Positions 858 to 54,538 of a DNA stretch of 64,000 nucleotides are shown in pieces; position 1 is the first letter of the stretch; each line of letters begins with the position of its first letter. Origin of the DNA: Cyanidioschyzon merolae (taxonomy: Eukaryota); NCBI GenBank assembly GCA_000091205.1, contig AP006501.2, one strand, 5' to 3'. The position numbers and the translations under genes are program-made. A model generated the notes under the pieces. It had not been told where the DNA came from and did no database searches. It was given only the letters and a program-made list of their open reading frames with translations.

Positions 858-3800
858 ATGACGCACGCTCAACAAACCACTGGTACCGTTCTATCCGAGT
901 CGGAAACCCGACACCTGACAGAAACGCTTCTTCAGATTCTGGAGCCGCATCTTCAATCCTTCAACAGTGCAATAACGCAGGGCCTGCAGCAGGTGCTCCA
1001 CGATATCGAGCCACTTATCCTTGAAGGAACCGTTCAGCAAGCAGCTGACCACGTGTCCAAGGAACGACTTGAGGTCTGGTTTGAAGACCTCCGCCTTCAA
1101 AAGCCGCGTCTGCCCAGGGCTCGCGCGTTGCAGTCTACAGGCAACCTCAGAGCGCGCGGCTTTGCAGATGAACTCGAACTGGGTCTAGATCCTTCAGCGA
1201 TACTCCCGCACCAGTGTCGCGCCCTGCAGTCGTCGTATACAGGCTCGCTAAGCGTCGTTCTCTGCTGGCGAGCGACGCGCATCTCGCACGGCTGTTACCG
1301 GAAAGACAGCACGCTATGTAATACAGCGCTCTGGACAAACGGCTCCTACGCGGAAGATGTTTATCGCAGCGAACGGCATCTGGGCGAGGTTCCCATACTA
1401 GTGGGATCCAAGTTGTGCCACTTAGACGGACTGAGTCCAAACGAGCGCGTTGCACTTCACGAAGAGGAGTACGATTACGGTGGCTACTTCATCGTGAATG
1501 GTGTCGAAAAGCTGCTGCGAATGGTGATTATGCCGCGAGCCAACCATGTGATGGTCATAGCGCGTGATGCAAACGTCCGACGTGGAGAGCACTTCACTCG
1601 CTTCAGTGCAATGATTCGCTGTCGACGCGCTGACCGAGTTCGAGTTGTTACCAATCATCTCCACTACCTTCAAACTGGTCTTCTTAGGCTTCGATTTTCC
1701 GTCAAACGCCAAGAATACTTGCTACCGTTAGGGCTTGTGCTGAAAGCCCTTTACGATCTGGCTGATCGGGAGCTATTTTTGCTGCTCACAATGCCAAGTG
1801 GATGCTGCGGAACTAACGCAGATGAAAACCTCCGCTATATCCGCGAGCGAGCGCTCATGACGGTTCGTGAGCTGCATGTACTAACTGGTGGTGAGGGTAC
1901 CCAGCACGCAGCGCTGTCTTACTTGGGTGCTCGTTTCCGTTGCCTGTTTCCAGAGTACCTGTCTTCTGACGATTCCGATGAGCGCTGTGGCGCGTTTATT
2001 TTGCGTCGATATGTGCTCATTCACCTCGACGATCCACTTCAAAAACTAGAGCTCCTCGCCTATATGTCGCGGAAGCTTTTGCATTATATGACTGGCTGTC
2101 TCGCAGAGGACGATCCAGATTCGCTAGCGAACCAGGAGCTCCTCTTGCCCGGACAGCTTTGGCTGCTTTTCCTCCAGGAGAAGCTCCAAGACGCCCTGTT
2201 CGCGCTACGGGATGAAATTTCCCGGCAGTTGACTCAGCGAGCCAATCAGGGAAGCTTACTAGACCCAGATTTTGTCCGCAAATGTGTAAGCAAACCTCGC
2301 AGTGGTATCAGAGTAGGCGAAAGGATGTTGCACCTGCTATCCACGGGAACAGCGTCCCTGCGGGATGGTGCAGAGTTGCTACAGACGTCGGGTTACAGCA
2401 TCATAGCGGATCGGATCAACTTCCAACGCTTCCTTTCCCACTTCTACAGCGTCCATCGAGGGCAGTACTTTTTGAATCTGCGCACGTCGGAGTCTCGCAA
2501 ACTCAAGCCGGAGACTTGGGGCTTCATCTGTCCGGTGCACACACCCGATGGAGCACCCTGTGGAATTCTCAATCATCTCACGCGAATGTGCCGCGTCGTC
2601 GCGGATCAACAACAGGTACTGCAGGAGCAGAAGCGAATCGAATGGATCTTGGAGACGCTGCCACTGGAGCATCCTCTCGCTCACAACGATGCACTGCTTA
2701 TGCCACCGGCGAATGCAAGACCAGTACTGGTGGATGGTCGGATTCGAGGCTATGTGCATGGAGATGTACCGCTGGGGAAGCTTTTGCGTCAGCAAAAACT
2801 CGAGCATTTCCCCCAAACAGAAATTGTGGATGTGGAGATCCCGCGTCTCTTCCCGAGCGTCATGGTGTTCTCGACACCGTCACGGCTCATGCGCTCAGTG
2901 TGGAATATGCCGCAAGCTGGCATAGAATGGATAGGCACCATGGAGCAACTTTTCATGCCCGTTGACCTGTGCAAGTCGCAGTCGATGTCTCGTGCTGGAA
3001 ACGCAGCCATTCATCGTGAGCTGAGCGCAACGAACATTTTCAGTCTACTGGCCTCGTTTATTCCCTTCAGCAACATGAATCAATCACCGCGAAATATCTA
3101 CCAGTGCCAGATGGGCAAACAAGCCATGGGCGTTCCCTTTCACGATTGGGATCGGAGGTTCGACACCAAGTCCTACCGATTACTGACGCCCCAGCAACCT
3201 TTGGTGCAGAATCGCTCTGAGGCCCAAGCCGGTTGGTCCAAGGTCTTCGGATCGAGCTTCAATGCAGTAGTCGCTGTGATCTCATACACTGGTTACGATA
3301 TGGAGGACGGTATGGTGATCAACCGAGCGAGTCTGGATAGGGGTCTCGCCCACGGAGCGATCTACGGCTGCGAATTCGTGGATCTGGATCAGCTCAATGT
3401 CGCAAAGGATGCCCGGTTCAGCCGACTGCCAGCTGTAGGCGAGCGCATGACACCCGGCTCGGTGCTCTATAGTATTCAGGGCCGGAGACCTCATCTTTAT
3501 CGGAATAGTGAGACGAGTTATGTCGACGCTGTGCTCCTCGCCGAGAATCAACGGCGCGTTGCTATCCGGACCCGGACGCCTCGGCGACCCGTCATCGGGG
3601 ACAAGTTTGCCTCTCGACATGGCCAGAAAGGGGTGCTGTCTGCAATCTGGCCCGCTGAGGATATGCCGTACACGAGCGACGGGATCGTTCCGGATATTCT
3701 CTTCAATCCGAATGGCTTTCCGTCGCGGATGACCATCGGTATGATTGTGGAGTCTATCGCAGGGAAAGCTGCAGCCGTTCACGGCGCTGTGCCAATTGAC

Positions 3801-19540: not shown

Positions 19541-20399
19541 AACTCAGGCCAGCAGCCCTGTCGAGAGCCAAACGTCAGGTCTTCCCAAGCACAGCCTGTC
19601 CCAGAGGTAGCGTCCTCCAAAGGAGAACAACAGTTGGATTCGAGCTCCGTCCGAGACCGATTAACTCTCTAGATTGTACATACCGCTGCGAACGGCGCTA
19701 TCATGGATTCCGTCACGCGCGTCTGGGCCGCGATGGAAGCGAATTTCGCGAGGGCGCGATTTTTCTTTAATCATTGACGAAATGTTTACCTGGGCCAGCG
19801 TTCTCCGATTATGCGCATTTTTCTTTTCTTACTTTTTTTGTGTTATTTTTCAGTGCGCGGTGAAGTATCCACCAAATGCCCTACCTCCAAGTTACATCAC
19901 CTATACTTATTCTCGGATATTCTGGTCGTTTCATACGTCCTATCGTGTGCCGAGCCTGCGGCATGCGACCGCAATGGCGCCAATAGCGCCGGTGCAGTCG
20001 CTGCACGGAGACAGAACGGCGTTGGCGAACTGCGAGGGCGCGATGGGGACTTCCTGTACTTCACCTCAACTGTATTCCATCCTATGTGAATGTTACCATA
20101 TGCTTTTTCGCAGTTTTATAGCATATGCGTTCGAATCGCGTACATTTGAAGGGACAAAAAAACCAAGGGACGCTATGGACATGGAATTCGGGGATCCTGG
20201 AGGCCCGGTGTCGCTGGCTGCCGGAGAAAAGGGAAAATAGTAACAAGCCCAGGGAACGGTAGAAGACGAAGAAGCAGAAGCAGAAGGCCAGACGTCAGAA
20301 GCGACTCGAAAAATGACGCAACTACGAGAATTTCGTGGAAGCCTTTCTTCGACGCAATATCAAGGATCCCTAAAAGCAAAAGAAGCAAGAGGCCAACAG

Positions 20400-22220
20400 A
20401 AACAGTGTCGCGTCCCACTTCATGAGTGTTTGTAACGCTTCCCTAGAAAAGATGCATTTTGTGAGGGACATGTACCACGACGTAGCGGATACCAAAACAG
20501 TCAAAGTTCCGGAAGAATTTTTCACGGTTACCTCCATCTGGCACCTGATGGCTGCCACAGGGGAAATGTCGGGGAGGAACGATCCAGTGCACGCCTTCTA
20601 CGAAAACTATCCCTTCTGCAGCATCAACGGTACTCGATGCAGGGCTGACTCGGGTATTTACACTTACGAGGCGATAGAGTATCTCACGAACCTGGGGAAC
20701 CAAACAATCGTAAACCACGAACGGTTCATCAAAGGCTGCATCTTTGCGCTCTACTCGGCCTGTCTCATAGGGTGGGTGACCATCATCGATAGCTCGACTA
20801 GAGATCGCCAGTATGAATAAGAGATCGAATTCTTCGACGAGGAGACATCACACAGGAGCACTACTGAAGGTTCTGTGATCCGTGCGGCTATTAAAGAGCA
20901 ACGTGGGGCCTCGAGGCTAGCGGATCAGCAGAAAACGTATCAGATATGAAAAAACATGAAAAGGAATTTTATCCCCTATCCTGCGCTATGTCGTATTTTT
21001 GAACAGAGAACTCGAGCGCAGGGCCAAAACGGAGCAGGGTGTGGAAGAAAATGAGGAGTCGATGGGGCGGCGGACTGCGCCTTTGGGGAAGCGCTTCAAA
21101 ATCGTACTGTTATGCAACATCAAGTCATATTTTGTGAAAATCGACCCCAGAGTCCTTTACGGCACACTGAAGGAGGTAAGTTCGGATTTCGATGTAAGCA
21201 ACTTGGAATTTACGGGCGAAAACCTGGAGACTCATTGGAAGCACATCTTCGATTTCAAACGTCTCAAAATGAGCAAGAAAAAGGTATTCAAGGAGATGAT
21301 CGAAAGCGATGGAGTATCCATACGCGTTGACTACAGGTGCTTGAAGGTGGATCGTCCTGTTTTGTCCTCGATATCGCGGGTGACGAAGCGTGACGAAATG
21401 AATGATGCGGACCCTACGACGTAGGAGGTGCAGGCGAAGGACCTCGTCGCCGGCGTGGACCGTGGGAACACGAATATCATGACCATTGCTGTTTCCATGC
21501 ATGGGAAAAATGCAAGGGCTCCCATCGCACAGGTGCAGCAAATGGAGAGCATAACCTCTGGACTTGTGACGACGCGGTTAACGACTTTTGCAATGAAACC
21601 CGCAGCGTATGGCACATTTACCTGAGCGGTTATACTCAGACCAGTGGATTTTGGAGTACATGTGCCAGCAACCCATTTTGTTATTGTTTCTTTTGCTCCC
21701 AGGCATTCAAAGAAAGCAATGGATCCCTTAGATTCGATAATTGTGGAGAAGAGACCTCAAACTGTCACTTTTAGCCTGCGAGCAATGATCTGACTCGTTC
21801 AATTCGGTCATTCTGCCATCAGCAGGTGGATGGATCACCTTTATCGTCGTCTTTGACTTGAACTTCGTGCATGAAAGGCAAAACTTAACAAACTCCCTCA
21901 CATAGACAGAATCGGCATCGATCCGTTCCACTCCATACACTCTCGCAGAAATTCTGCCGAAGAACCCAAATCGTGTGGAGTCCCCAGTCCTTTGATGCGA
22001 GGGATGATGAAGAGACACGAATGGACGAAGGAAAAAGCATGCTTCTTTGGGAGTTAATTGCGTGTTTGACGGGCCATTACCGACTCTGTACCGATGTAGA
22101 AGGCTTTTTCCAGAAGCGATATGTTTCGGCCTCTTACGATGAGACCTCTTTCGGAAGAAATGCGAAAGATGTTGATGAATACTTCACGAAGAAGGACAAC
22201 AAATGTTGTTCGTAATGAAG
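20400..22220 (+). mobile_element. Degenerate TnpB/Fanzor-like element, copy 1. N-terminal region, RuvC-I and zinc-finger segments are present; the RuvC-III tail appears absent
   Basis: Homologous at nt and aa level to 46066-47940. GKRFKIVLLCNIKSYFV matches GKRFKVVPLCNIKSYFV; LVAGVDRGNTNIMTIAVS matches VVGADPGDTNIIAIAVS (RuvC-I GxDxG). 21973-22215 (ACLTGHYRLC..KRYVSASYDE) matches copy 2's AGCWASKKWC..RRFATIPIDE. Confidence 0.65.
20999..21625 (+). pseudogene. Fanzor/TnpB-like nuclease ORF fragments of copy 1, interrupted by an in-frame TAG at ~21422
   Basis: ORFs 20999-21424 and 21428-21625 are in the same frame, separated by a stop; the RuvC-I motif lies in the second piece. Confidence 0.6.
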
Positions 22221-24552
22221 AGACAAGCTAGAATAATGACGACATCAGCCCATGCGCAGATTCCATCGAGTGGTAGTACGCAGGTCGCCAAACCTAGGGG
22301 ATCCCTCAGCAACCCATGCATCCTCGGGGCGCTATGTGGCACCTCCATTGTATATTTTTCTTGATTTGAGATGAAGTTGCTTTCCATAACTCTCTAGCGA
22401 TCAAGGAATAAGCAGCTGAGATAAGCGTTGAGCTGCCCTACATATCGGTCCATTCTTGCATGCAAAATCCGGTCGAGTGCGTCCTCTCGATTGCTATACG
22501 ATATTTTCTCGGCCTCGAATTCATAGACGAGACGTTTGCGTCCGTAACAAAGCAGTTCTTCGATAGATCCTTCTTCAACAAGTAATTCTCTACCTTAACC
22601 AGCTTTCAAATGCCCTGTGGCTCTTCCGATCTTTCGGACAAGGGTGTGCAAAAGCGCGCTCTGGCAGTGGAAGTGCCCGCGGCGAAGAAGATGCAAGAAG
22701 GTCACGGAGCATAGTAGAGACACATCTGCATTGTGGTTAGCGTCCGTCCCGCCGTCCTTCTAGTGTATCCAAGTCCCCGGGAGAATAAGATTACAAATAT
22801 AGCTACCGGATCTATGCTACTCTGCTAAGAAAAAGAAAAGGCGAGGAAGCAGAAGAACAAGCGACCAGACAGAGAAAGATACTGTCTGAAAGAAGAGGAG
22901 GAATAGGAAGGGATAACAGTAGGACACGGATTCAATCTTAGAATACCTTTAAGGTCTCTCTGCTAAAAATTGCCAAGAGGATATTTTTCCAATCGTTGAG
23001 ATTAAGGACGCCGTTAGGGACCGTATTGCACCTTGCTCGAGGACAATTCACCAGGCCTGCATAACATTGACACATCTCGTCAATGAATTGCTCGGCGTTC
23101 CAGGTGCGGAACTCCAAGGTACCCGCATTCCAATGGAATTTTTCGATCAAATATTCGTGCCAGAACTGAGACCCGGGACAGAAGCTGCGATACGACCTGA
23201 TATATCCAGAGCTCTAAATCATCATGAACCGGGCGGAATAGACACCAGGGGGCATACCAATATCGGGAATTTCAGTAGCTAGACCTCCATCTCGACGCTC
23301 TGCTTACGGTATTGATCTGAGAGGGATGATTTGTGCGCTTCTCTCACGGTATATGATGGTTCGGATGGCGCATGAGGACGATCCTTGGCTGGGATACCTG
23401 AGACGGTGCTGGTTTCGCCGCAAGTCTTGTTTGTATGGAGGTAAAACGTGCATTTGCGAAATTCGGGAATGGAAGAAATAGAAAATATCTGATAAGTTGC
23501 GTTGTTCGGGGGTTGCCTATGTCGCTTAACTTGCCGAAGAGCGCAAGGGCTCCACCCCTGCTCCTTCACAAAAAGCGCACAATGAGTGAAGGAATCGCTT
23601 CTGTTCGATTCCAATCGATGCTTTTGAGAGAACACTGACGCATCATGAGCTCGAGTGCACGCTGGAAAAGGTACAGAAACAAAGGGGGAAACAGAGCCGA
23701 ATGCAAGTGATGATACACAGTAAGTTGATCGAACTTCAAACGGCAAGGGAATCGAAGTAAAGAGGCTTGCTATGGATAATTTCACTAGGATCCATGAGCG
23801 TAAGCATGTCCTGCACCAGGACTTGAATGCTTCGAGAATCATCCGGAAATGTCTCGTACTTTCGGAACTTCCTGCCGCTGCTGGCGAGCGACGATTCAAG
23901 GGAATCATTTAGCGCTCAGTCTGGGCATTCTGATGAAACGTTGAGAAGCACGGATGAAAAACGTGAGTCGCCCGGAGAGATTGGAAGTGATTCCCGCCTG
24001 GAGCGAGTCACTGGTATGGCACAGTTCAGCAAACCACCAAGACCTAAACTCGATATCCATTCACGGAAAACGGTTTTCCATGAGACTAGCTAAACGATAT
24101 CTCGAGTTCGACTATTTGGTTTTAAATAGTATATTTTAACTTGTCCTGGCAAGCATGATCGTTTCTTCGAACGCCCTGCTGGGCATGAAGGTAGCCTCTA
24201 CATACAGCGGAGCTATGAGTCGGCGAGCTTCTCTCAGCCTCGTGAAAAGCCATTCAACACAAATACGTTTCAAATCAATGGCATGCCTCAGATTATCTTC
24301 ATCATACACAGGTCATCCACTACATACAGCATGAGTAGGCATTGATACTCCGCCAATCCTCCGTTTGGAGCGTCTGCCTGGAACGCCAAGCGTATCTTTC
24401 TCCGGGTGGCACAGTGTGCGGCCCAGCACGAGGACCAGATCCGACCGAAATGCACAGCGAACAGAATGTTTCGCAGCTGTTCCGCGATGTGTCGCAAGCT
24501 CTAGCAACGGGAGAGCTGTCGCAGATCGCACTTTTGACTAACTATTACTTCA

Positions 24553-34309: not shown

Positions 34310-35054
34310 CTAGACACTTGGACGAACGCTTCGCGGTCCTCGGAGCTCACAACAGAAGCTCACATGTCTGGAGCGCACACTGCCGTCTCAAAATGCAGCC
34401 GCCGTTGTGGCTGCACTGCACAAGCTTCACACCGGGCATTTGCGGCGACTAGAAAACGTAGAGGCTTTGAGGCAGCAAAGGAAAGAACAGAATATGACCG
34501 CTAACTAGCTATTCGCCAACACATTCTTCCCGCCTCTATCGTAAGGTTTTCAAGTGGGAAAAGGTTTTCGTAGTTCAGAAAGCTTACCTTCTATGCGCAC
34601 CGTCCGGCTAGTGCTTCATGCTACCAGTGGCGGGTGCAGTGGCGCGACCTGATCAGCTCGTTTGCAAAGCAATTTCACCTGGGACTAGCAGTGGGTAGGC
34701 AGCGTATCTCCGTCACCGTGGTCTCGGTGGTCTCCTAGCATAACGCCTCGCGCTGCAGAAGGCAGCACGTCTTTCTACCCAGCTTGCTGGCTCCCAGAGT
34801 GACGATGAATCCCTATTCCGTGTCGGGTGAACGACGCCTCGAGCCGACACCCTCAGCGGCATGGCAGAGCCGTTCTGTCTTCGTGCTGCATTCGCGCTAG
34901 TGGTTTAGGCGCTCCGGAGGGTGCGCACGGTAGGATCGGCGCACGAGAGAATGTACGGAAAATTCCAAAGGCGGGCGTTTTCTCGTAGCTATTTAAAAAA
35001 GAGGCGAGAAAAGGAAGCACTTGAAGTGAGCTGTGAAGTTGCATCAAGACTACT

Positions 35055-40393: not shown

Positions 40394-41056
40394 TCACGAC
40401 GACGAGAACTCGGCTTTAAGCCCTGACGACCTGCTCGCATACTCACTCCGCAGGTGTACTGAACGGATAAGGTCGAATAATCGAGTATGGTCGAAAGACA
40501 TAATCTCCTCTTTTTTCGCCATCGAAGAAAAAGCATTCGACAGCATCAGCACGATACCTCTCAGGGAGTATGCTCCCAGATGCATGCGTCTCTTCTGTTT
40601 GCTTGGAAAAGTGTCTTGGGATAGGACTTCAGTCATCGCAGCAACAGCTGCCAGAGAAGGGTGCGTCACCGCTTGGGGCAAAGCGATTGCAGACGCAGCG
40701 GTGCAGTCGACTTGCTCCCCAGTCGGGATTTTCCTTCCGGTACCTGTTTTATCGAATGGAATGACGCATTCCAAACAAGCCCCAACTGGAAGGTGCGGAG
40801 TGCGTACGCGTATGCAACGGACAGTGTTCTCGACTAGGGGATCGCCCAGGAGAAGCCCCTGATCGTAAGGCACAGCAACGATGACGAAAACGGATGCAAA
40901 CATCGCGGGGAGCGTATTTCTACAGATTAGCGGCATCTTCGGAGCTGCGAAGCTAGCCTCCATGCGCCAGAGAGCGGCCTTTGTAAGAGACGATGTTGCA
41001 GGCACGTGAGAACGCCTCAGGGCAGCCAAGCGTTGGCGCCGCTGCGCGGGCTTCAC
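40394..41056 (-). CDS. Hypothetical protein; it overlaps a plus-strand ORF (40380-40862), so either could be the real gene
   Basis: 220-aa ORF with an internal hydrophobic segment; no recognisable motif. Confidence 0.25.
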   Translation of the reverse strand: MKPAQRRQRLAALRRSHVPATSSLTKAALWRMEASFAAPKMPLICRNTLPAMFASVFVIVAVPYDQGLLLGDPLVENTVRCIRVRTPHLPVGACLECVIPFDKTGTGRKIPTGEQVDCTAASAIALPQAVTHPSLAAVAAMTEVLSQDTFPSKQKRRMHLGAYSLRGIVLMLSNAFSSMAKKEEIMSFDHTRLFDLIRSVHLRSEYASRSSGLKAEFSSS

Positions 41057-42382: not shown

Positions 42383-45043
42383 TTAAAGATCATGCTCTTC
42401 CTTTTTCGCCTCTCCAACGTCATGGTTTGGCTCGATTTCAAGCGTTGCCCCGCTCAAACTTTCCGCTTGTTTGCTAATGCGCACGCGAACATCTTCTCCG
42501 TGCCGCACTGTTCCCTGCAAAAGGTGGCGAGACAATGGCTCGAGAATTGCCCTCTGGATCACCCTTCTTAGCGGCCGTGCGCCATAGACAGGATCGTATC
42601 CATGTTCAACAAGCCACTGTATTACATCGTCGGAAATGTCTAGGCGGAGATCTGCTCGCTCGCGGAGTAGTTTCTGCAGCGCGTCAAGCTGTACACGAAC
42701 CACATCTTTCAAGATTTCACGTCCAAGTCGATTGAACAAAATGATGTCATCAAGTCGGTTAATGAACTCCGGGGGAAAGAATTGCCGGACCTGAACCATG
42801 ACTTCGTCACGTGCGAAGCTGCTCGGAACACCATCTGGCAGAGAGGCTAAAATATCTGCGCCGATATTACTCGTCATCACAATAATCGTGTTTCGGAAAT
42901 CGACCGTTCTTCCTTGACCATCTGTAAGACGGCCATCGTCTAGAACTTGCAAAAGCACTGTACATACAGCCCGGTGAGCCTTTTCAAATTCGTCGAAAAG
43001 TACCAATTGATAGGGCCTGCGCCTCACCGACTCGGTGAGTTGTCCGCCCTCCTCGTAGCCGACGTAACCGGGTGGTGCACCAATGAGACGAGCGACTGAA
43101 TGCCGTTCAGAGTACTCACTCATGTCCAGGCGACACATTGCATCGGGGCTGTCGAAAAGAAACTCAGCCAGACCTCTACAAAGTTCGGTTTTCCCCACGC
43201 CAGTGGGCCCTAGAAACAGAAATGATCCTATTGGTCGATTGTGAGCGTGAAGCCCTGCTCGCGAAAGACGAATAGCAGACGCGACCGTGCGGACGGCCTC
43301 AGGCTGCCCGACTACCCTCTTCGAGAGGTGATCTTCGAGATGCAGAAGTCTCTCTTTCTCGCTCGACATTAGCGCCTGAACCGGAATTCCTGTTGCTTTC
43401 GAGATCACTTGCAGAATATCTTTCTCAGTCACAGCCTCTGCTACGAGTTTGCCCGACGTTTCTGCCTCATTCTGAGCGACGTTTAACGTAGTCGCGGTCG
43501 TGCCTTGGGCGGAATCCGATAGCAGAATCGTTCGATGCTCAGCGGGAATGCGCGATTCAATCTCTGGTATCGTTTTGTACCGCAGCATCGCCACTTTCTC
43601 CCACTCGCCGCGTCGCTCAGCCATTTCCATCTCATGTAACGCCTTTTCCAACTCCTCTTTTGCTTGTTTCATCGCCTGCAGTTGAGCACGCTCACGTTCC
43701 CATTGGAGAGCCAGTTGTGACCGTTGGTGTTCAAGCTCCCTGACTTCTCCCTCGACTGCGCTCAGCCGCTTTCGCGAGACAGGGTCGCGCTCTAGGCGCA
43801 GTGCTTCTAGCTCGACACGCAGTCGGATCAAGCGGCGATCCAAATCGTCAATAGCTTCAGGTTTGCTCTCTTGCTGCATTTTCAGCCTTGCTGCGGCTTC
43901 ATCAACCAAATCTATTGCCGAGTCAGGTAGTTTCCTCTCTGTCATGTAGCGATGTGCGTTCACTGCCGCAGCAACAAGAGCTCGATCCGCAATACGGACA
44001 CCGTGATGCACTTCATAGCGATTGCGGAGGCCTCGCAAAATGTTGATCGTGTCTTCGACAGAGGGTTCTGCGACGAAAATCGGTTGAAATCTTCTCGCTA
44101 GTGCTGCATCCTTTTCGATATACTTGCGGTATTCAGCGAGGGTTGTCGCACCAACGCAGTGAAGATCGCCCCGGGCAAGCGCAGGCTTCAACAAGTTGCT
44201 CGCATCCAGGCTACCTTCGGCAGCACCAGCACCGACGAGCATATGCAACTCATCAATAAAAAGAATGACGCTTCCTTGGAGCTCCTCGACGTCTCGAAGC
44301 ACACTGCGAAGCCGCTCTTCGAACTCTCCCCGAAACTTTGCCCCCGCAACGAGTGCGCCTAGATCCAGAGCTACTACGCGCTTATTCTTCAAGGACTCGG
44401 GGACGTCACCCCTCGCAATACGCTGCGCCAAACCCTCGACAACAGCCGTCTTGCCGACTCCCGGCTCACCTATAAGGACAGGGTTGTTCTTTGTTCGGCG
44501 CGATAGCACTTGGATTGTTCGGCGAATTTCCTCATCGCGCCCAATCACGGGATCAAGCCGATTCAGCGCAGCCGCGCTAGTAAGGTCTCGCCCGTACTTT
44601 TTCAGTGCTTCTCCAACTGGAACGTTTTCCGGATGCACCCAACCCGGCGGTTGTCCCGTCGCTCCGGTGCGATCGTTCGTGTGCCCCATTCCCGTGGCAA
44701 AACCCCTGATACCAACGACACGTTCCAAGTTCCTGCTGGAAACATTGAACCTGTTTAAAACGGCGCCACGCAAGCTCTCTAGCCTCCTGCACCGTTCCGA
44801 CAACGCCAAGACGCCGGCCTGATGATTGAAAAACATAGTCAGGCGCCTTACAGAATGCCACCTTCGCAACGAACGGGACGCATGCAGCAGAGGCCCTGCA
44901 GGAGCATCCCCAACGAGCGCCCTCGGCCAACTCTCAGACCTGCCAACTGAAGTCCCGAGAAGGGCTGCCCCTCCCCAAGGCGCTTTCGACGAGTTCCTCA
45001 AGGTACGTAGCACTAGAGCCACCATTGTGACAGGAGACGTCAT
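42383..45043 (-). CDS. CLPB: ClpB/Hsp104-family disaggregase with an Arg-rich N-terminal presequence (organellar Hsp78/ClpB type)
   Basis: [32 protein letters not shown], a coiled-coil middle domain, a second [22 protein letters not shown], and a [17 protein letters not shown] sensor region. Confidence 0.92.
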
Positions 45044-46065: not shown

Positions 46066-47940
46066 TTGCTCTCCGTTCTTCACGTGCAGTATTCTCAAAT
46101 CACGCGTTCTTCATGTTTTAGTCTTTCTTCTTCAAGGTACTTCGGGGGTTCTGCAATGTGCCCCGATGGATTGGTGAGGAACAACATGAGATGTCGACCT
46201 TTGACGACTTGTTCACAAGGTCATGCCGAAAGTCAGCTGAACCTTCCACGCCAAGTAATAAATTCTGTACGAAAGACATGTCCTTCTCTATTTGCAAATT
46301 ACGAAGAAACCGTATTTTACAACAGCACAATGGTTCCCAGAGAATATGCTCCCAGCGGCTTTCGTCTCTTGTGCTTTAATGGAAACGGGTCTTGGACCCG
46401 GGCCTCTCTCGAAAAGGCATTTGGGCCATCGTCACTGCCATCACCAACGATCGGCAGCATGAACAGGCGAAAGAATTTTTCGACAAGAAGACATCACGCA
46501 GGGGAAAGAATGAAGCTTATGTGATCGGTTCGGCTATTCAAGAGTACCGTGCGGTCTTGGGGCTAGCGAATCTCGCAGAAAAGTCATCAGATATGAAAAA
46601 AAGGTGATGAAATGCGCTGTCCCCTCATCCTGCGCTATTTCTTGTTCTTTGACCGAGAACTCGAAGACAAGGCCGGAAAGGAGCTGGGTGTAGGAAAAAA
46701 AGAAGAGTCGGAGAGACAGAAGGCTGCCCTAATGGGGAAGCGCTTCAAGGTCGTTCCGTTATGCAACATCAAGTCATACTTTGTGACAATCAACTCCAGA
46801 GTCTATTTCGGCATCATGAGGGATATCTATGAGGAGTTCGGCGTAAACAGGGAGGAGTTCAGCGGCGAAAATCGGGACACGTACCGGAAGAGTATCTTCT
46901 ATTTAAAAAGTGTCAAAACGAGCAAGCAAAAGAAATTCACATGGATGGTCGAAAGCGATGAAGTATCCATGTGTGTACACTTTCGGCGCTTGAAGGCGAA
47001 TCGTCCTGTTCCGTCCTCGGCTTCGCCCCTGAGGAAGCATGCAGAAAAGAAAGAGGCGGATCCTGCTACGCAGAAAGTGCAGGATAACGACTTTGTCGTT
47101 GGCGCGGACCCAGGGGACACGAATATAATAGCCATCGCAGTATCGAAGCGTATGGTAGATGTGACTGACGGCAACTTACGTCATAAAGACATGCGTCTCT
47201 TAAAGTTCTCGAGAACGAGATATCACCGAGAATCGGGAATAATGAGTGCGAGGGAAAAAATTTAGGAAGAGAATTCAGGAGTGAAAGAGCGCCTGGAAGC
47301 TATGAGCGAGGTGACTAGCCGAAAAGCGGACTTTCGAGCTTTTCTGAAATTCATGGAAGTTCGCGTTGCTCTTTGGGAGGCGCTGTGGAAAGAGTATACA
47401 AAGCCACGATGGGCTCGTTTGTGAATGAGCTTGTACTGTGTGAAGCAGCGGGCATTCGCCAACTTTTTCAATGAGTTGAGTGCCTTGAAAGAGGACGAGA
47501 GTCAAAGGCACGTAGTAGCATTCGGAGCAGGGTGCTGGGCATCGAAAAAATGGTGTACACCAGCTCCAACGACGAGAACGTACAAGGAGCGTGCACGGCG
47601 TTTTGCCACAATACCAATAGATGAGTTCCAATCGTCCAGTATTCACCATGAGTTGGGATGTACACTTCAGACGGTCGAGATGGATTAGTGTCAGCGGCGC
47701 GGTGACGATATAAAACAGTACGGAGCGCTGACGGAAGAGCAAATGGAAAGGACGGCGAAAGTTCGAGGATTGCTTACGTTAGTGAGTACAACCACCGGGA
47801 GGAAACGTGTGAAGTTTGTGAACAGGGAATTTAACGCCGCCATCAATATAAGGAGATGTGCGGTGATGGAAATAAGACCTCCAGAGTTGACAAGAGTGAA
47901 TTTTTGGGAGAACCTCTCAAATTATACGAGAAGAAATTGA
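46066..47940 (+). mobile_element. TnpB/Fanzor-like RuvC nuclease gene, copy 2. Full-length architecture but broken by in-frame stops and one frameshift
   Basis: Same-frame ORFs 46066-46524, 46612-47265, 47425-47688 and 47743-47940. RuvC-I VVGADPGDTNIIAIAV, Cys/His cluster GCWASKKWC..HHELGC, and a C-terminal VNREFNAAINIRR (RuvC-III signature with D to E). Confidence 0.7.
46612..47265 (+). pseudogene. Largest intact segment of Fanzor/TnpB-like copy 2 (N-terminal/WED-like region plus RuvC-I)
   Basis: 217-aa ORF ending at a stop. The sequence continues in another frame (EENSGVKERLEAMSEVTSRKADFRAFLKFMEVRVALWEALWKEYTKPRWARL), which indicates a frameshift. Confidence 0.6.
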
Positions 47941-48058
47941 AGCCAGTAGTAAGTGGCCAGTCTAAAAAGGCTGGGAAGCGTCTGCACATCGGCTGGAGAC
48001 GTCTAGCGTAGAGCGCGAGGCGCGCAACTACTGCACCGCTGGTGGCAACGTCTGACTT

Positions 48059-48799
48059 TTGAGGCGTTCGTTATTGCCAGCGTTGGCTGTGATGGAGGGC
48101 CCGGAGGCAAACCCTTCGTGTTCAGAGGTCTTGACACCCTCAAGCGCACTGCCTAGAGCTGAAGCGACACGCACGGCGCTCGGGTGGTTCTGGTTCCGGG
48201 TGCGGACGTGTTTTGGACAAGGTGACGCTGCGACTCAAAAATTAGAGCAACGATCTTTCGTTCAGCGACTGTTACCTCTGTGCACACTAGTGCTCACTTT
48301 GTGCTTAGCGTTCACGCTTTGGAGGGCTTTGGTCCTGTGGACCTACTCCGAGTCCCCAGTCGTTGTGGTGCTCAGTGGCAGCATGGAGCCAGGTATTCAC
48401 CGCGGGGATATCCTATTTCTTTACAACCGCACCGCAGCTGAAAGGCCTTTACGTGTCGGTGATATGGTTGTTTACAGTTTGCGTGACCGCAGTCTGCCGA
48501 TAATCCATCGCATTATTGAAGTTCATAGACGAGCTTCCGAGAGCATAGGCGATGGCACAAGGGCATCAAACTCTAGTATCCTGGAATATTTCCTTACAAA
48601 AGGGGATAACAACTTCGGTGACGATCGAGGTCTCTACCCTGCTGACAAGAAATGGCTGCTACGCAGTGACGTCATTGGACGGGTTATCTTTACTATCCCG
48701 AAAGTTGGCATGCTGACGATCCTGATGAATACACACAAATGGTTAAAATACGCCCTGATAGGACTGCTGTCACTCACCCTGCTCTTCATATCAGAGTGA
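48059..48799 (+). CDS. SEC11: Signal peptidase complex catalytic subunit SEC11; the true start is probably an internal Met
   Basis: SESPVVVVLSGSMEPGIHRGDILFL (Ser-His catalytic region) and a C-terminal GDNN..DDRGLY motif. Confidence 0.88.
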   Translation: MRRSLLPALAVMEGPEANPSCSEVLTPSSALPRAEATRTALGWFWFRVRTCFGQGDAATQKLEQRSFVQRLLPLCTLVLTLCLAFTLWRALVLWTYSESPVVVVLSGSMEPGIHRGDILFLYNRTAAERPLRVGDMVVYSLRDRSLPIIHRIIEVHRRASESIGDGTRASNSSILEYFLTKGDNNFGDDRGLYPADKKWLLRSDVIGRVIFTIPKVGMLTILMNTHKWLKYALIGLLSLTLLFISE

Positions 48800-48819: not shown

Positions 48820-49782
48820 TTATGCAACTCCAGGGCCACTGTGTGCTTCAATCGGTGTGAGCGTTATGATGCTCAGTGCATGGATTCTTCTGGAATTAAG
48901 CTCCTCGCTCAAAAGAGCATAAACCAGCTTGTGTCGTTTCACCTCGGGCATGTCTTTGAAGGTATCGCTCACAATTTTGATTGTAAAATGCGTCTCGCCT
49001 CGTCGCTCATGGGCACCTTCGTGACCTCGATGCTTTGCGGAGTCATCACGAATTTCAATCAAGTCTGGTTTCAATACCTGAAGCTTGTTTTCGATGACCT
49101 CCTTCATGGATACCTTGCCATTTGCTGTGGACTGCATAGAGTTTGCCTCACCCATGCCGAGCATTCTGGCCTTTTCTTGCATTGTCCGTAGCATGTTCAG
49201 AAAACCGTTCGTACGGCCTGGAGTCAAACTCACACCCAGACCCGACTCTTTGATAAAGTCAGGCGTCACCGCACATACCTCTTCCACACTGTATCCACTG
49301 AGGCCTCGAATAAGGAAAGCAACAAGCCCCTTGGTAAGCTGTGAGTCAGAGTCACCAATAAACTCAACTTTGCCTTCCTTATCCAAGAAGGCATCTACGT
49401 GCACGACGCTGAGACAGCCCCGTACGCGGTTTGCGAGCACTCTGCGCTCGCGCGGAAACGGTGGCAGGGTCGACGCCATGTGCAAAAGCTGCTGAACCCT
49501 CAGCTTTTGGTCGCCAAGTTTCTTGAAGGCATCCACAAGCCCTTGGAGTTTTTCAGTTGTCCTGCTCTGTCCACTGTGGTTGCCGGGGTCCTCATTCCCA
49601 CAGGCTCGCAAAAGAGCGAGTCTTGCCGTTCGCCGCCTTTGCGCCCGCACAAAGCGCGGCTGAGAGAAACTCGGACGCTCTCCAGAACTCGAACAACCTC
49701 GAAACCTTCTCTGGGTTCGCAGAGCAGTTGGATTACAGGCAAAAGCAGGACCTGAACAGCCGCCACCGCATAAGCGCGCCAT
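48820..49782 (-). CDS. SUFE1: SufE-BolA fusion protein (plastid-type SUFE1 cysteine desulfurase activator) with a transit-peptide-like N-terminus
   Basis: SufE domain (RVRGCLSVVHVDAF..EFIGDSDSQLTKGLVAFL) followed by a BolA domain (RDDSAKHRGHEG..HFTIKIVSDTF..RHKLVYALL). Confidence 0.85.
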   Translation of the reverse strand: MARLCGGGCSGPAFACNPTALRTQRRFRGCSSSGERPSFSQPRFVRAQRRRTARLALLRACGNEDPGNHSGQSRTTEKLQGLVDAFKKLGDQKLRVQQLLHMASTLPPFPRERRVLANRVRGCLSVVHVDAFLDKEGKVEFIGDSDSQLTKGLVAFLIRGLSGYSVEEVCAVTPDFIKESGLGVSLTPGRTNGFLNMLRTMQEKARMLGMGEANSMQSTANGKVSMKEVIENKLQVLKPDLIEIRDDSAKHRGHEGAHERRGETHFTIKIVSDTFKDMPEVKRHKLVYALLSEELNSRRIHALSIITLTPIEAHSGPGVA

Positions 49783-52960: not shown

Positions 52961-53314
52961 TCAATAAATGTATTCACGCGCAGACGATTCCCAGCCTTTT
53001 TCGACCGGCAGACTGCTGTCGGCCGGTCGAAAAATGTACACTTCGGGTCTGCGAGGCTTCCACACGAAGTTAGATCGCCTCAGCTCTGCGGCCCTCGTCT
53101 CCAGCACCGCAAATCGTCTGATATTAATAGCAGTGCTGAAGTCTCGGTTCACAAACTCCATGCGTTTGTTGCCGCTGGTTGAACTCACTAGTCTAAGGAT
53201 TCCTCGAACTCGAGCGCTCAGTGCCATTTGGTGCTCTGTCAACTCTGCGTGATTTTCTATCGCCGAGCCGCTCCACCGGCTCCTCTCCATCTCGTTCTTC
53301 TGAAGTATACGCAC
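52961..53314 (-). pseudogene. TnpB/Fanzor-like C-terminal fragment, copy 3, carrying the RuvC-III motif
   Basis: LSARVRGILRLVSSTSGNKRMEFVNRDFSTAINIRRFAV aligns with copy 2's TAKVRGLLTLVSTTTGRKRVKFVNREFNAAINIRRCAV. A TGA stop lies immediately upstream, so it is a fragment. Confidence 0.65.
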
Positions 53315-54538
53315 AGTTCATCCAAAGGGTTTTTTTCCTGAAACGAACGTACTTCCTCCCGTCCTTAAGTCAGGAGTTTCCCGGAGGATCGAAAGACTTG
53401 GAAAGTAAAGACAAAATGTGTCCCGATGTGTTACCGTGTGCTGAAAGCTTCAGCGATTCGCCCACTAGAACGATCACTACGTTTCACGATAGAAAACACT
53501 CCTTCGATGAGCTTTAACGACCGAGCGCATGCAGAGATAGAAAGCAGCTCTTCCCCGATTGCATTGGTAAAAGCTCAAACGCAAGAAGAATGGTGAAATA
53601 CCACGTTTTCCAATAGAATGACGTCGCTGGACGTCAGGAGAAAGTCTTCAATGATTCGCCAAAGTGGTCGGTGCTGTTGTATGAGCCTTTTCGATGAGCG
53701 AAACTGAGGCCGCAAAATGAATCTACTGCAGTTAGAACAGATAATGATGTCCTCGTTCTCATCGAGCTCGATCGTACATACAATGCGATTCCTCTCCGCA
53801 AATACTCATACACGCTTCGAGCGTATCGTTTGAAGTAAGTCATATTGACTGAAGAAACAAACCGACGTCCCCGTGCTTCATACCGATCGCGACGTGTCAG
53901 GACTTGTGTTCGAGCGATTCGGCGGAAGATGGCCATGCATGCATTTGGACTTTTTTTGCGACTGGATCTCAGTATTTTGATGACCACATATACAGTCTGG
54001 TGTGAAACAGGAACACCAGTAGTAAATCGTATCGACGCCTTTTGCTTTCCCTAGAGTGATCAACGGATCGTCTTCTAGCGTTGAGAGCAATCATGCTTTA
54101 AGAATATCGATTTTGGCACGAAATGCTTTCAATCTTTTCTTTCAGTGTTCCACCACCATCTGTGTTCTCCGCTACGAATGAGCTGAAGGTAAATGCAGTC
54201 CTCGTTGCAATTTTCAGTAAATGATATATCTTGTAAGCAATTCGTCTGTGATCTATGCGGTACATTGATCTGTAATATCCATCTCCATCTAGACAACACA
54301 GCGGAGCCGAAACAGAATTGAGTTGAAAGCCGCTCGCGTACGGCACTGAGCGCCGCGCACGCAATTTCGGGATTCCTTGCGCGTTGCAGACCGCACTCTG
54401 CAGTTGAACGCGTTGAGGCCAGTGGACGCATTCATAGTGTCGAGTGCGTGGACGTATTGTTTGCATAAAAAGCGAGCTCTCTATGAGGTGTTTACGTAAG
54501 TCACTGCTAGATTTGTAGCTCCTGGACTCCTCTATTCG

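Follow-up and report, generated by a model that had tools for sequence, protein, structure and literature searches.

The analysed window is a stretch of 64,000 nucleotides from Cyanidioschyzon merolae (assembly GCA_000091205.1, contig AP006501.2). The locus considered here is intergenic, between a ClpB gene on the minus strand (42383-45043; an ORF of 886 aa and an exact match to BAM82758 of C. merolae 10D) and a SEC11 signal-peptidase gene on the plus strand (48092-48799; 235 aa, BAM82759). The following ORF, at 48820-49782 on the minus strand, encodes a SufE/BolA protein of 320 aa that matches BAM82760 of C. merolae 10D exactly. Since BAM82758, BAM82759, and BAM82760 are consecutive, the public annotation contains no gene between ClpB and SEC11. 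In this interval, at 46393-48066 on the plus strand, lies a decayed, 5'-truncated copy of CMe-1A, the Fanzor1-encoding element of C. merolae described by Bao and Jurka (2013, Mobile DNA 4:12; PMC3627910). The same paper reports a CMe-1A consensus of 3169 bp without terminal inverted repeats, a single-exon ORF of 734 aa, and about 150 copies, whose identity to the consensus is in each case about 80% (PMC3627910).

Using the consensus DNA and protein of CMe-1A from the supplementary files of that paper (PMC3627910; consensus in Additional file 2), we found by global alignment that the relic corresponds to consensus positions 1483-3169 of 3169. The 1681 aligned bases are 84.2% identical, and the alignment contains 265 mismatches and 9 indel events. 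At the protein level, it is 74% identical to the published CMe-1 protein over 530 codons. The 3' end is complete. At the 5' end, 1482 nt are missing, which correspond to the 905-nt 5' region together with the start codon and codons 1-192; a search upstream of 46393 for sequence like consensus 1-1482 gave chance-level matches only. Judged by nucleotide identity of at least about 80% over a long stretch, the relic belongs to CMe-1A; judged as a full-length copy it does not, as it has kept the 3' terminus and lost the 5' part, and it is best described as a truncated member. Next to the truncated 5' edge lies a weak 129-bp direct repeat (46270-46395 and 40492-40619; 70.5% identical, E = 5e-10) that does not resemble CMe-1A.

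Translated in all six frames, the locus gives a protein-like Fanzor/TnpB reading in frame 1 from 46612 to 47937 with exactly three stops. The remaining five frames contain 9-37 stops over the same interval, and the frame-1 reading is therefore far beyond chance. With the consensus as a guide, the coding sequence, all on the plus strand, can be followed through three blocks. Codons ~193-261 lie at 46393-46596 in frame 3 (tblastn places residues 193-262 at 46392-46601 with 74% identity), where the upstream part of the protein can be read over 46392-46607. The central ORF block, codons ~262-697, occupies 46597-47900 in frame 1 and contains the three nonsense codons. The last 37 codons (~698-734) lie at 47901-48011, again in frame 3, and end at the original stop codon, TAG, at 48009-48011. 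The blocks are joined by two net frameshifts, namely a +1 shift from frame 3 to frame 1 in a run of seven A residues (A7; 46596-46602) and a -1 shift from frame 1 to frame 3, seen in the alignment to the consensus as a 1-nt deletion at 47900-47901. Further indels are a compensating +1/-1 pair at 46691/46701, an in-frame deletion of 3 nt at 47796, and another of 6 nt at 47919, within the C-terminal block. Because both net frameshifts sit near the ends of the relic, its pieces fall mostly in one frame.

This accounts for much of what had been reported in a preliminary description of the window, in which the locus was listed as the second of two Fanzor copies. The four large segments that it placed in frame 1 (46612-47265, 47281-47424, 47425-47688, and 47743-47940) are all in that frame, and they are parted by stops as it said (TAG at 47263-47265, TGA at 47422-47424, and TAG at 47686-47688). 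The stretch 47266-47424, which it took to be out of frame, actually reads in frame 1 like its neighbours, and position 46524, where its reported interval begins, falls in the frame-3 block of codons 193-261.

We next consider the stops in the light of related copies. A protein search returned 149 relatives, nearly all in JGI hot-spring metagenomes, and the metagenome collection holds 487 stretches encoding relatives of the CMe-1 Fanzor1, of which 74 non-duplicate related copies (loci L003-L083) form our comparison set. The first nonsense codon, TAG at 47263-47265, replaces the GAG of Glu483 through a single G-to-T change; GAG is found at this site in 49/74 relatives and a stop in 0/74. The second, TGA at 47422-47424, stands at Arg536, which is CGT in the consensus and CGA in most relatives (CGA in 37, CGT in 26, and TGA in 3), and if it arose from CGA, the change is a CpG transition. 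The TGA recurs at three metagenome loci (L071-L073), which may be a single locus sampled in different metagenomes. The third, TAG at 47686-47688, replaces the AAG of Lys624 through a single A-to-T change, with AAG present in 64/71 relatives. No base is inserted at 47263, 47422, or 47686, relative either to the single-exon consensus or to the 74 relatives. The three stops are point mutations of sense codons. Nonsense mutation was one of four causes that the preliminary description offered without choosing among them, and it is the one that the data support.

Homology over the RuvC region places the relic in Fanzor1, whereas an uninterrupted full ORF is not found (codons 1-192 are gone, and there are 3 stops and 2 net frameshifts). 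Among named Fanzor1 proteins, the CMe-1 protein matches VCa-1 (E = 5e-13), CRe-1 (2e-5), and CVu-1 (1e-3). A joint profile of CMe-1 and published Fanzor1 proteins, four of them named green-algal sequences, matches the Fanzor1 structures 8GKH (1.8e-13) and 9CF0 (1.4e-6) in the PDB, followed by a mimivirus TnpB-like protein (1.3e-4) and ISDra2 TnpB (0.0095). Since this profile contains the green-algal proteins, the link between CMe-1 and the solved structures is transitive. Indeed, the PDB matches to Fanzor1 and TnpB emerged only once the published green-algal sequences had joined the profile, and searches of the PDB using phmmer with the relative P0003, or a profile of the close family alone, gave nothing meaningful. 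Pfam scans of the conceptual translation, of five longer homologues, and of the 290-aa metagenome protein P0030 found no family at E <= 0.1, and thus no OrfB or TnpB domain at that threshold; the precomputed match PF26935 is weak and denotes only a DUF (DUF8286). An AlphaFold2 model built on a 12-sequence alignment (pLDDT 31, pTM 0.18) was too poor to confirm the fold independently. Altogether, the match to CMe-1A and the homology to Fanzor1 bear out the earlier naming of the locus as Fanzor.

The relic resembles the solved Fanzor1 proteins of Spizellomyces punctatus (8GKH) and Parasitella parasitica (9CF0) through the C-terminal RuvC region of CMe-1, which is homologous to theirs and has in common with them the DPG motif, a "VVAYG" segment, the glutamate of (I/V)DE(F/Y)xTS, and NRD..AA..N. 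It differs from them in that the CMe-1 consensus lacks most of the zinc-finger cysteines, and in that the relic is not intact and has Glu in place of the RuvC-III Asp. In terms of the motif of Bao and Jurka, D-X(125,275)-[TS][TS]-X-X-[C4 zinc finger]-X(5,50)-RD, the relic has the D, reads SS at [TS][TS], and has RE for RD, and even the CMe-1 consensus lacks most of the C4 cysteines ("THHELGC..."). To the bacterial TnpB of IS200/IS605 (ISDra2, PDB 8BF8), the homology is distant and covers the RuvC-II/III and bridge region (E = 0.0095); CMe-1A, in contrast, is eukaryotic, its protein is much longer, and the N-terminal half is unrelated. No TnpA partner was found.

At the catalytic sites, the RuvC-I aspartate D431 (GAC at 47107-47109, in the GADPG motif) and the RuvC-II glutamate E603 (GAG at 47623-47625, in the IDEF motif) are retained. 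The RuvC-III aspartate D672, which is Asp in 65/69 relatives, has become Glu (GAC to GAA at 47827-47829), turning NRDFNAAINI into NREFNAAINI. The triad of Asp in DPG, Glu in DE[FY]xTS, and Asp in RD..AA is therefore incomplete at D672, and the substitution is a further sign of inactivation. Neither a protein product nor RNA-guided nuclease activity is expected of the relic.

Compared with the CMe-1A consensus, the relic comes from the same species, shares the single-exon layout, and ends within a few bases of the same 3' terminus. It differs in the absence of consensus 1-1482 and in carrying 3 nonsense codons, 2 net frameshifts, two in-frame deletions (3 and 6 nt), and the D672E change. Bao and Jurka reported approximately 150 diverged copies collectively, and the relic, as one of them, is an ordinary pseudogene of a family already described in C. 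merolae in 2013. We hold with high confidence that 46393-48066 is a non-functional, 5'-truncated CMe-1A (Fanzor1) remnant. As to how it arose, the start codon, codons 1-192, and all of the 5' region were lost, and the coding region then acquired the three nonsense substitutions, the two net frameshifts, the small in-frame deletions, and the substitution of the RuvC-III aspartate. The main use of this result is correct annotation, that is, masking the locus as a CMe-1A (Fanzor1) transposon remnant, with no gene prediction. "Hypothetical protein" ORF fragments from metagenome pipelines, such as P0030 and P0146, are likewise pieces of pseudogenes.

Although the preliminary description regarded the pattern of decay as unusual, both of its components match the family. 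Per 100 mismatches to the consensus, the relic has 1.21 stops, against a family median of 1.14 (n = 74), and 1.62 frameshift events, against a median of 1.29 (n = 74). Therefore, the pattern is typical of CMe-1A copies. Within the frame-1 block, which has 192 mismatches, 2.2 stops would be expected and 3 are seen, and 2.5 frameshift events would be expected and 2 are seen, which cancel each other. The same holds for the comparison with neutrally decaying transposon pseudogenes in general, which the relic resembles in its nonsense substitutions, small indels, truncation, loss of a catalytic residue, and homopolymer-length difference from its Yellowstone alleles (see below). There is no material difference from such pseudogenes, the sole nuance being a dN/dS of 0.44 against the consensus, reflecting history before inactivation.

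A neutral simulation of all 247 coding differences points in the same direction as this ratio, as it predicts 9.9 +/- 3.0 stops, with a probability of 0.007 for three or fewer. Part of the 16% divergence likely predates insertion or death and arose in active lineages under purifying selection, which would explain why there are fewer stops than the neutral prediction. On this simplest reading, a good part of the differences would lie between subfamilies of once-active elements, leaving only the rest to decay after death, and a 3-nt deletion shared with the fragment at 53035-53318 (see below) fits such subfamilies. The consensus is the closest relative found, and substitutions are therefore counted unpolarised. 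The low dN/dS and the stop deficit could in principle also reflect some selection on the relic after insertion. On a weaker, family-level reading, the value of 0.44 and the stop deficit might mean that selection still acted on Fanzor1 fairly recently in this extremely reduced genome of a red alga.

Among the 74 hot-spring copies, none is intact (0/74), and the best candidates each carry at least one stop or frameshift. This suggests that CMe-1A may be extinct, or nearly so, in this lineage. Two candidates for an intact copy were rejected. P0003 (752 aa) seemed intact, yet its locus combines an N-terminal frameshift with a premature stop, and the copy at L006 has no frameshift but a stop at codon 228. 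Some stop positions recur among copies, e.g., at codons 692, 574, and 298, which suggests either that dead copies multiplied by duplication or that the same ones were picked up in several samples.

The orthologous locus, with the same flanking genes, is present on two Yellowstone metagenome contigs, L001 (sample 3300005861) and L002 (sample 3300001340). Over 10.9 kb, 10D and the Yellowstone populations are 99.8% identical, and the aligned positions that differ from the window number 22 in L001 and 7 in L002 (single-base differences and 1-2-base indels). Given the single-nucleotide differences elsewhere in the locus, the two contigs are independent assemblies of a different population. Strain 10D is not known to have been isolated at the Yellowstone site. 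All three stops, the -1 shift at 47900, and D672E are identical in L001 and L002. The sole relevant difference is in the A-run, which has six residues (A6) in both Yellowstone assemblies, as in the consensus, and seven in 10D. With A6, the ORF runs from 46392 straight through the A-run to the first TAG, and this is the metagenome allele that encodes P0030 (290 aa). The A7 frameshift therefore either arose by mutation very recently in the lineage of 10D or reflects an error in the homopolymer.

Of the alternatives, the one that survives best is compatible with the pseudogene explanation and concerns the 3' end of the relic. Its non-coding terminus (48012-48066, consensus 3111-3169, plus strand) contains a degraded terminal hairpin, and 43/55 aligned bases equal the consensus. 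Only 26 nt separate the end of the relic (48066) from the SEC11 start codon downstream of it (48092; BAM82759). Therefore, the 5' UTR of SEC11 and probably its promoter would overlap the 3' end of the relic, and the relic could be transcribed, for example within the SEC11 5' region. Accordingly, the dead relic might have been co-opted as non-coding DNA or RNA, either as the SEC11 promoter/5' UTR or as an omega RNA-like 3' scaffold. This short distance favours co-option, as do the folding of the 3' 267 nt, which is better than that of shuffled sequences (z = -2.7, 1/200), and the modest covariation in the 3'-terminal hairpin across 21 copies (6/500 shuffles). However, conservation of the relic is lowest over its last 190 nt (74-76% against 81-88% elsewhere), and RNAalifold on the 3' ends of the 21 copies found almost no covariation (term -0.65) and weak structure only. 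In addition, none of the 74 copies (0/74) encodes an intact Fanzor protein that could use such an RNA, and in a compact genome, such closeness to a gene is to be expected. A search of Rfam over the whole window returned no match. We therefore consider co-option of the dead relic unlikely. An alternative worded to take in either a co-opted relic (SEC11 promoter/5' UTR or omega-RNA-like transcript) or the weaker family-level version, in which Fanzor1 was under selection until fairly recently, has in our estimate a slimmer chance still.

The terminal hairpin itself lies at consensus ~3150-3166, which corresponds to ~48048-48064 of the window (alignment columns 259-275). Among CMe-1A copy ends, some carry a perfect 7-bp hairpin (GTTCGA CTT TCGAAC) and others a weaker, T-rich version, with a G-C to T-A exchange at one pair, and the flank beyond the end usually starts with TT. 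These ends recall the subterminal hairpins seen in IS200/IS605 and at Helitron ends.

The remaining alternatives would restore a functional gene, and each fares far worse than co-option. The first, an active Fanzor gene in which each of the three stops falls inside a short spliceosomal intron that is removed from the mRNA, is suggested by Fanzor1 genes elsewhere, since those of Chlamydomonas (CRe-1 to CRe-3) have 5-10 exons (PMC3627910). It would also not lack candidate boundaries, as in-frame GT..AG pairs of 40-400 nt around each stop are plentiful by chance (143-202 candidates). However, the CMe-1 consensus ORF is a single exon, and the window is colinear with it through all stops, without an inserted base; consequently, any such "intron" would delete conserved coding residues. 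The single-exon consensus and the lack of extra bases together exclude introns. The extra non-coding sequence that a spliced gene would have at the stops is not present in the relic, and canonical signals around each interruption are also missing, in that none of the GT..AG candidates has a strong donor hexamer, although a GT..AG scan is by itself a weak test, given hundreds of chance pairs. The GT...AG boundaries that the preliminary description suggested looking for around each stop thus amount to chance pairs. A spliced gene is further at odds with the loss of codons 1-192 and the start codon and with the two real frameshifts. Only 27 introns have been reported in the whole C. merolae genome (PMC4829280). 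Short introns, the second of the four suggested causes, are in our judgement next to impossible here. The lesson for in-frame stops in transposon relics is to ask first whether the sequence is colinear with the consensus of its family, and only then to turn to introns or recoding.

Expression through recoding, by programmed ribosomal frameshifting or transcriptional slippage at A7 combined with readthrough of the stops, draws on the switch from frame 3 to frame 1 within a slippery-looking A7 run (GAT ATG AAA AAA AGG) and on the single frame shared by the other pieces. However, A7 is a one-base gain relative to the A6 of the consensus and the Yellowstone alleles and is therefore not a conserved recoding signal. 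Readthrough would be needed at three separate stops (TAG, TGA, and TAG), related copies have sense codons at these sites, and the frameshift at 47900 and the missing N-terminus would be left unexplained. Programmed frameshifting, the third suggested cause, is beside the point for stops that lie in frame in a relic without its first 192 codons, and we give recoding almost no credence. Finally, an intact gene in which errors of sequencing or assembly created the stops and shifts is scarcely credible: the extra A at 46596-46602 does differ from both other assemblies and is at an error-prone type of site, but the three stops, the 47900 shift, and D672E are repeated in two independent assemblies, which excludes error for the stops and with it the last of the four suggested causes, a base-calling error cannot produce a 5' truncation, and the 10D genome was reportedly finished to completion by Sanger sequencing.

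Beyond this pseudogene, the window holds further CMe-1A and Fanzor1-like remnants. Copy 1 of CMe-1A lies on the plus strand at 19868-20035 and 20084-21530, matching consensus 70-240 and 820-2268 with 77-78% identity. It lacks consensus 241-819, ends at consensus 2268, and is interrupted by 5 in-frame stops as well as by frameshifting indels, at least 8 in number. Its two segments had been described as sharing one frame, but 20084-21530 alone reads in frames 3, 1, and 2. Further downstream, at 23311-23793 on the plus strand, there is a much more diverged Fanzor1-like remnant in a single frame with 4 in-frame stops, whose amino-acid identity to CMe-1 residues 499-660 is only 33%. At this divergence it cannot be the 3' half that copy 1 lacks, and it may stem from an older insertion or represent a second family. 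On the minus strand, 34470-34969 represents the 635-bp module from the 5' part of CMe-1A (78% identical to consensus 120-645), corresponding to the non-autonomous TE-N2_CMe of Bao and Jurka (PMC3627910), and 53035-53318 is a short CMe-1A fragment (consensus 2740-3030, 75% identical). The latter shares with the relic a 3-nt in-frame deletion at consensus 2886, which hints at a subfamily common to the two.
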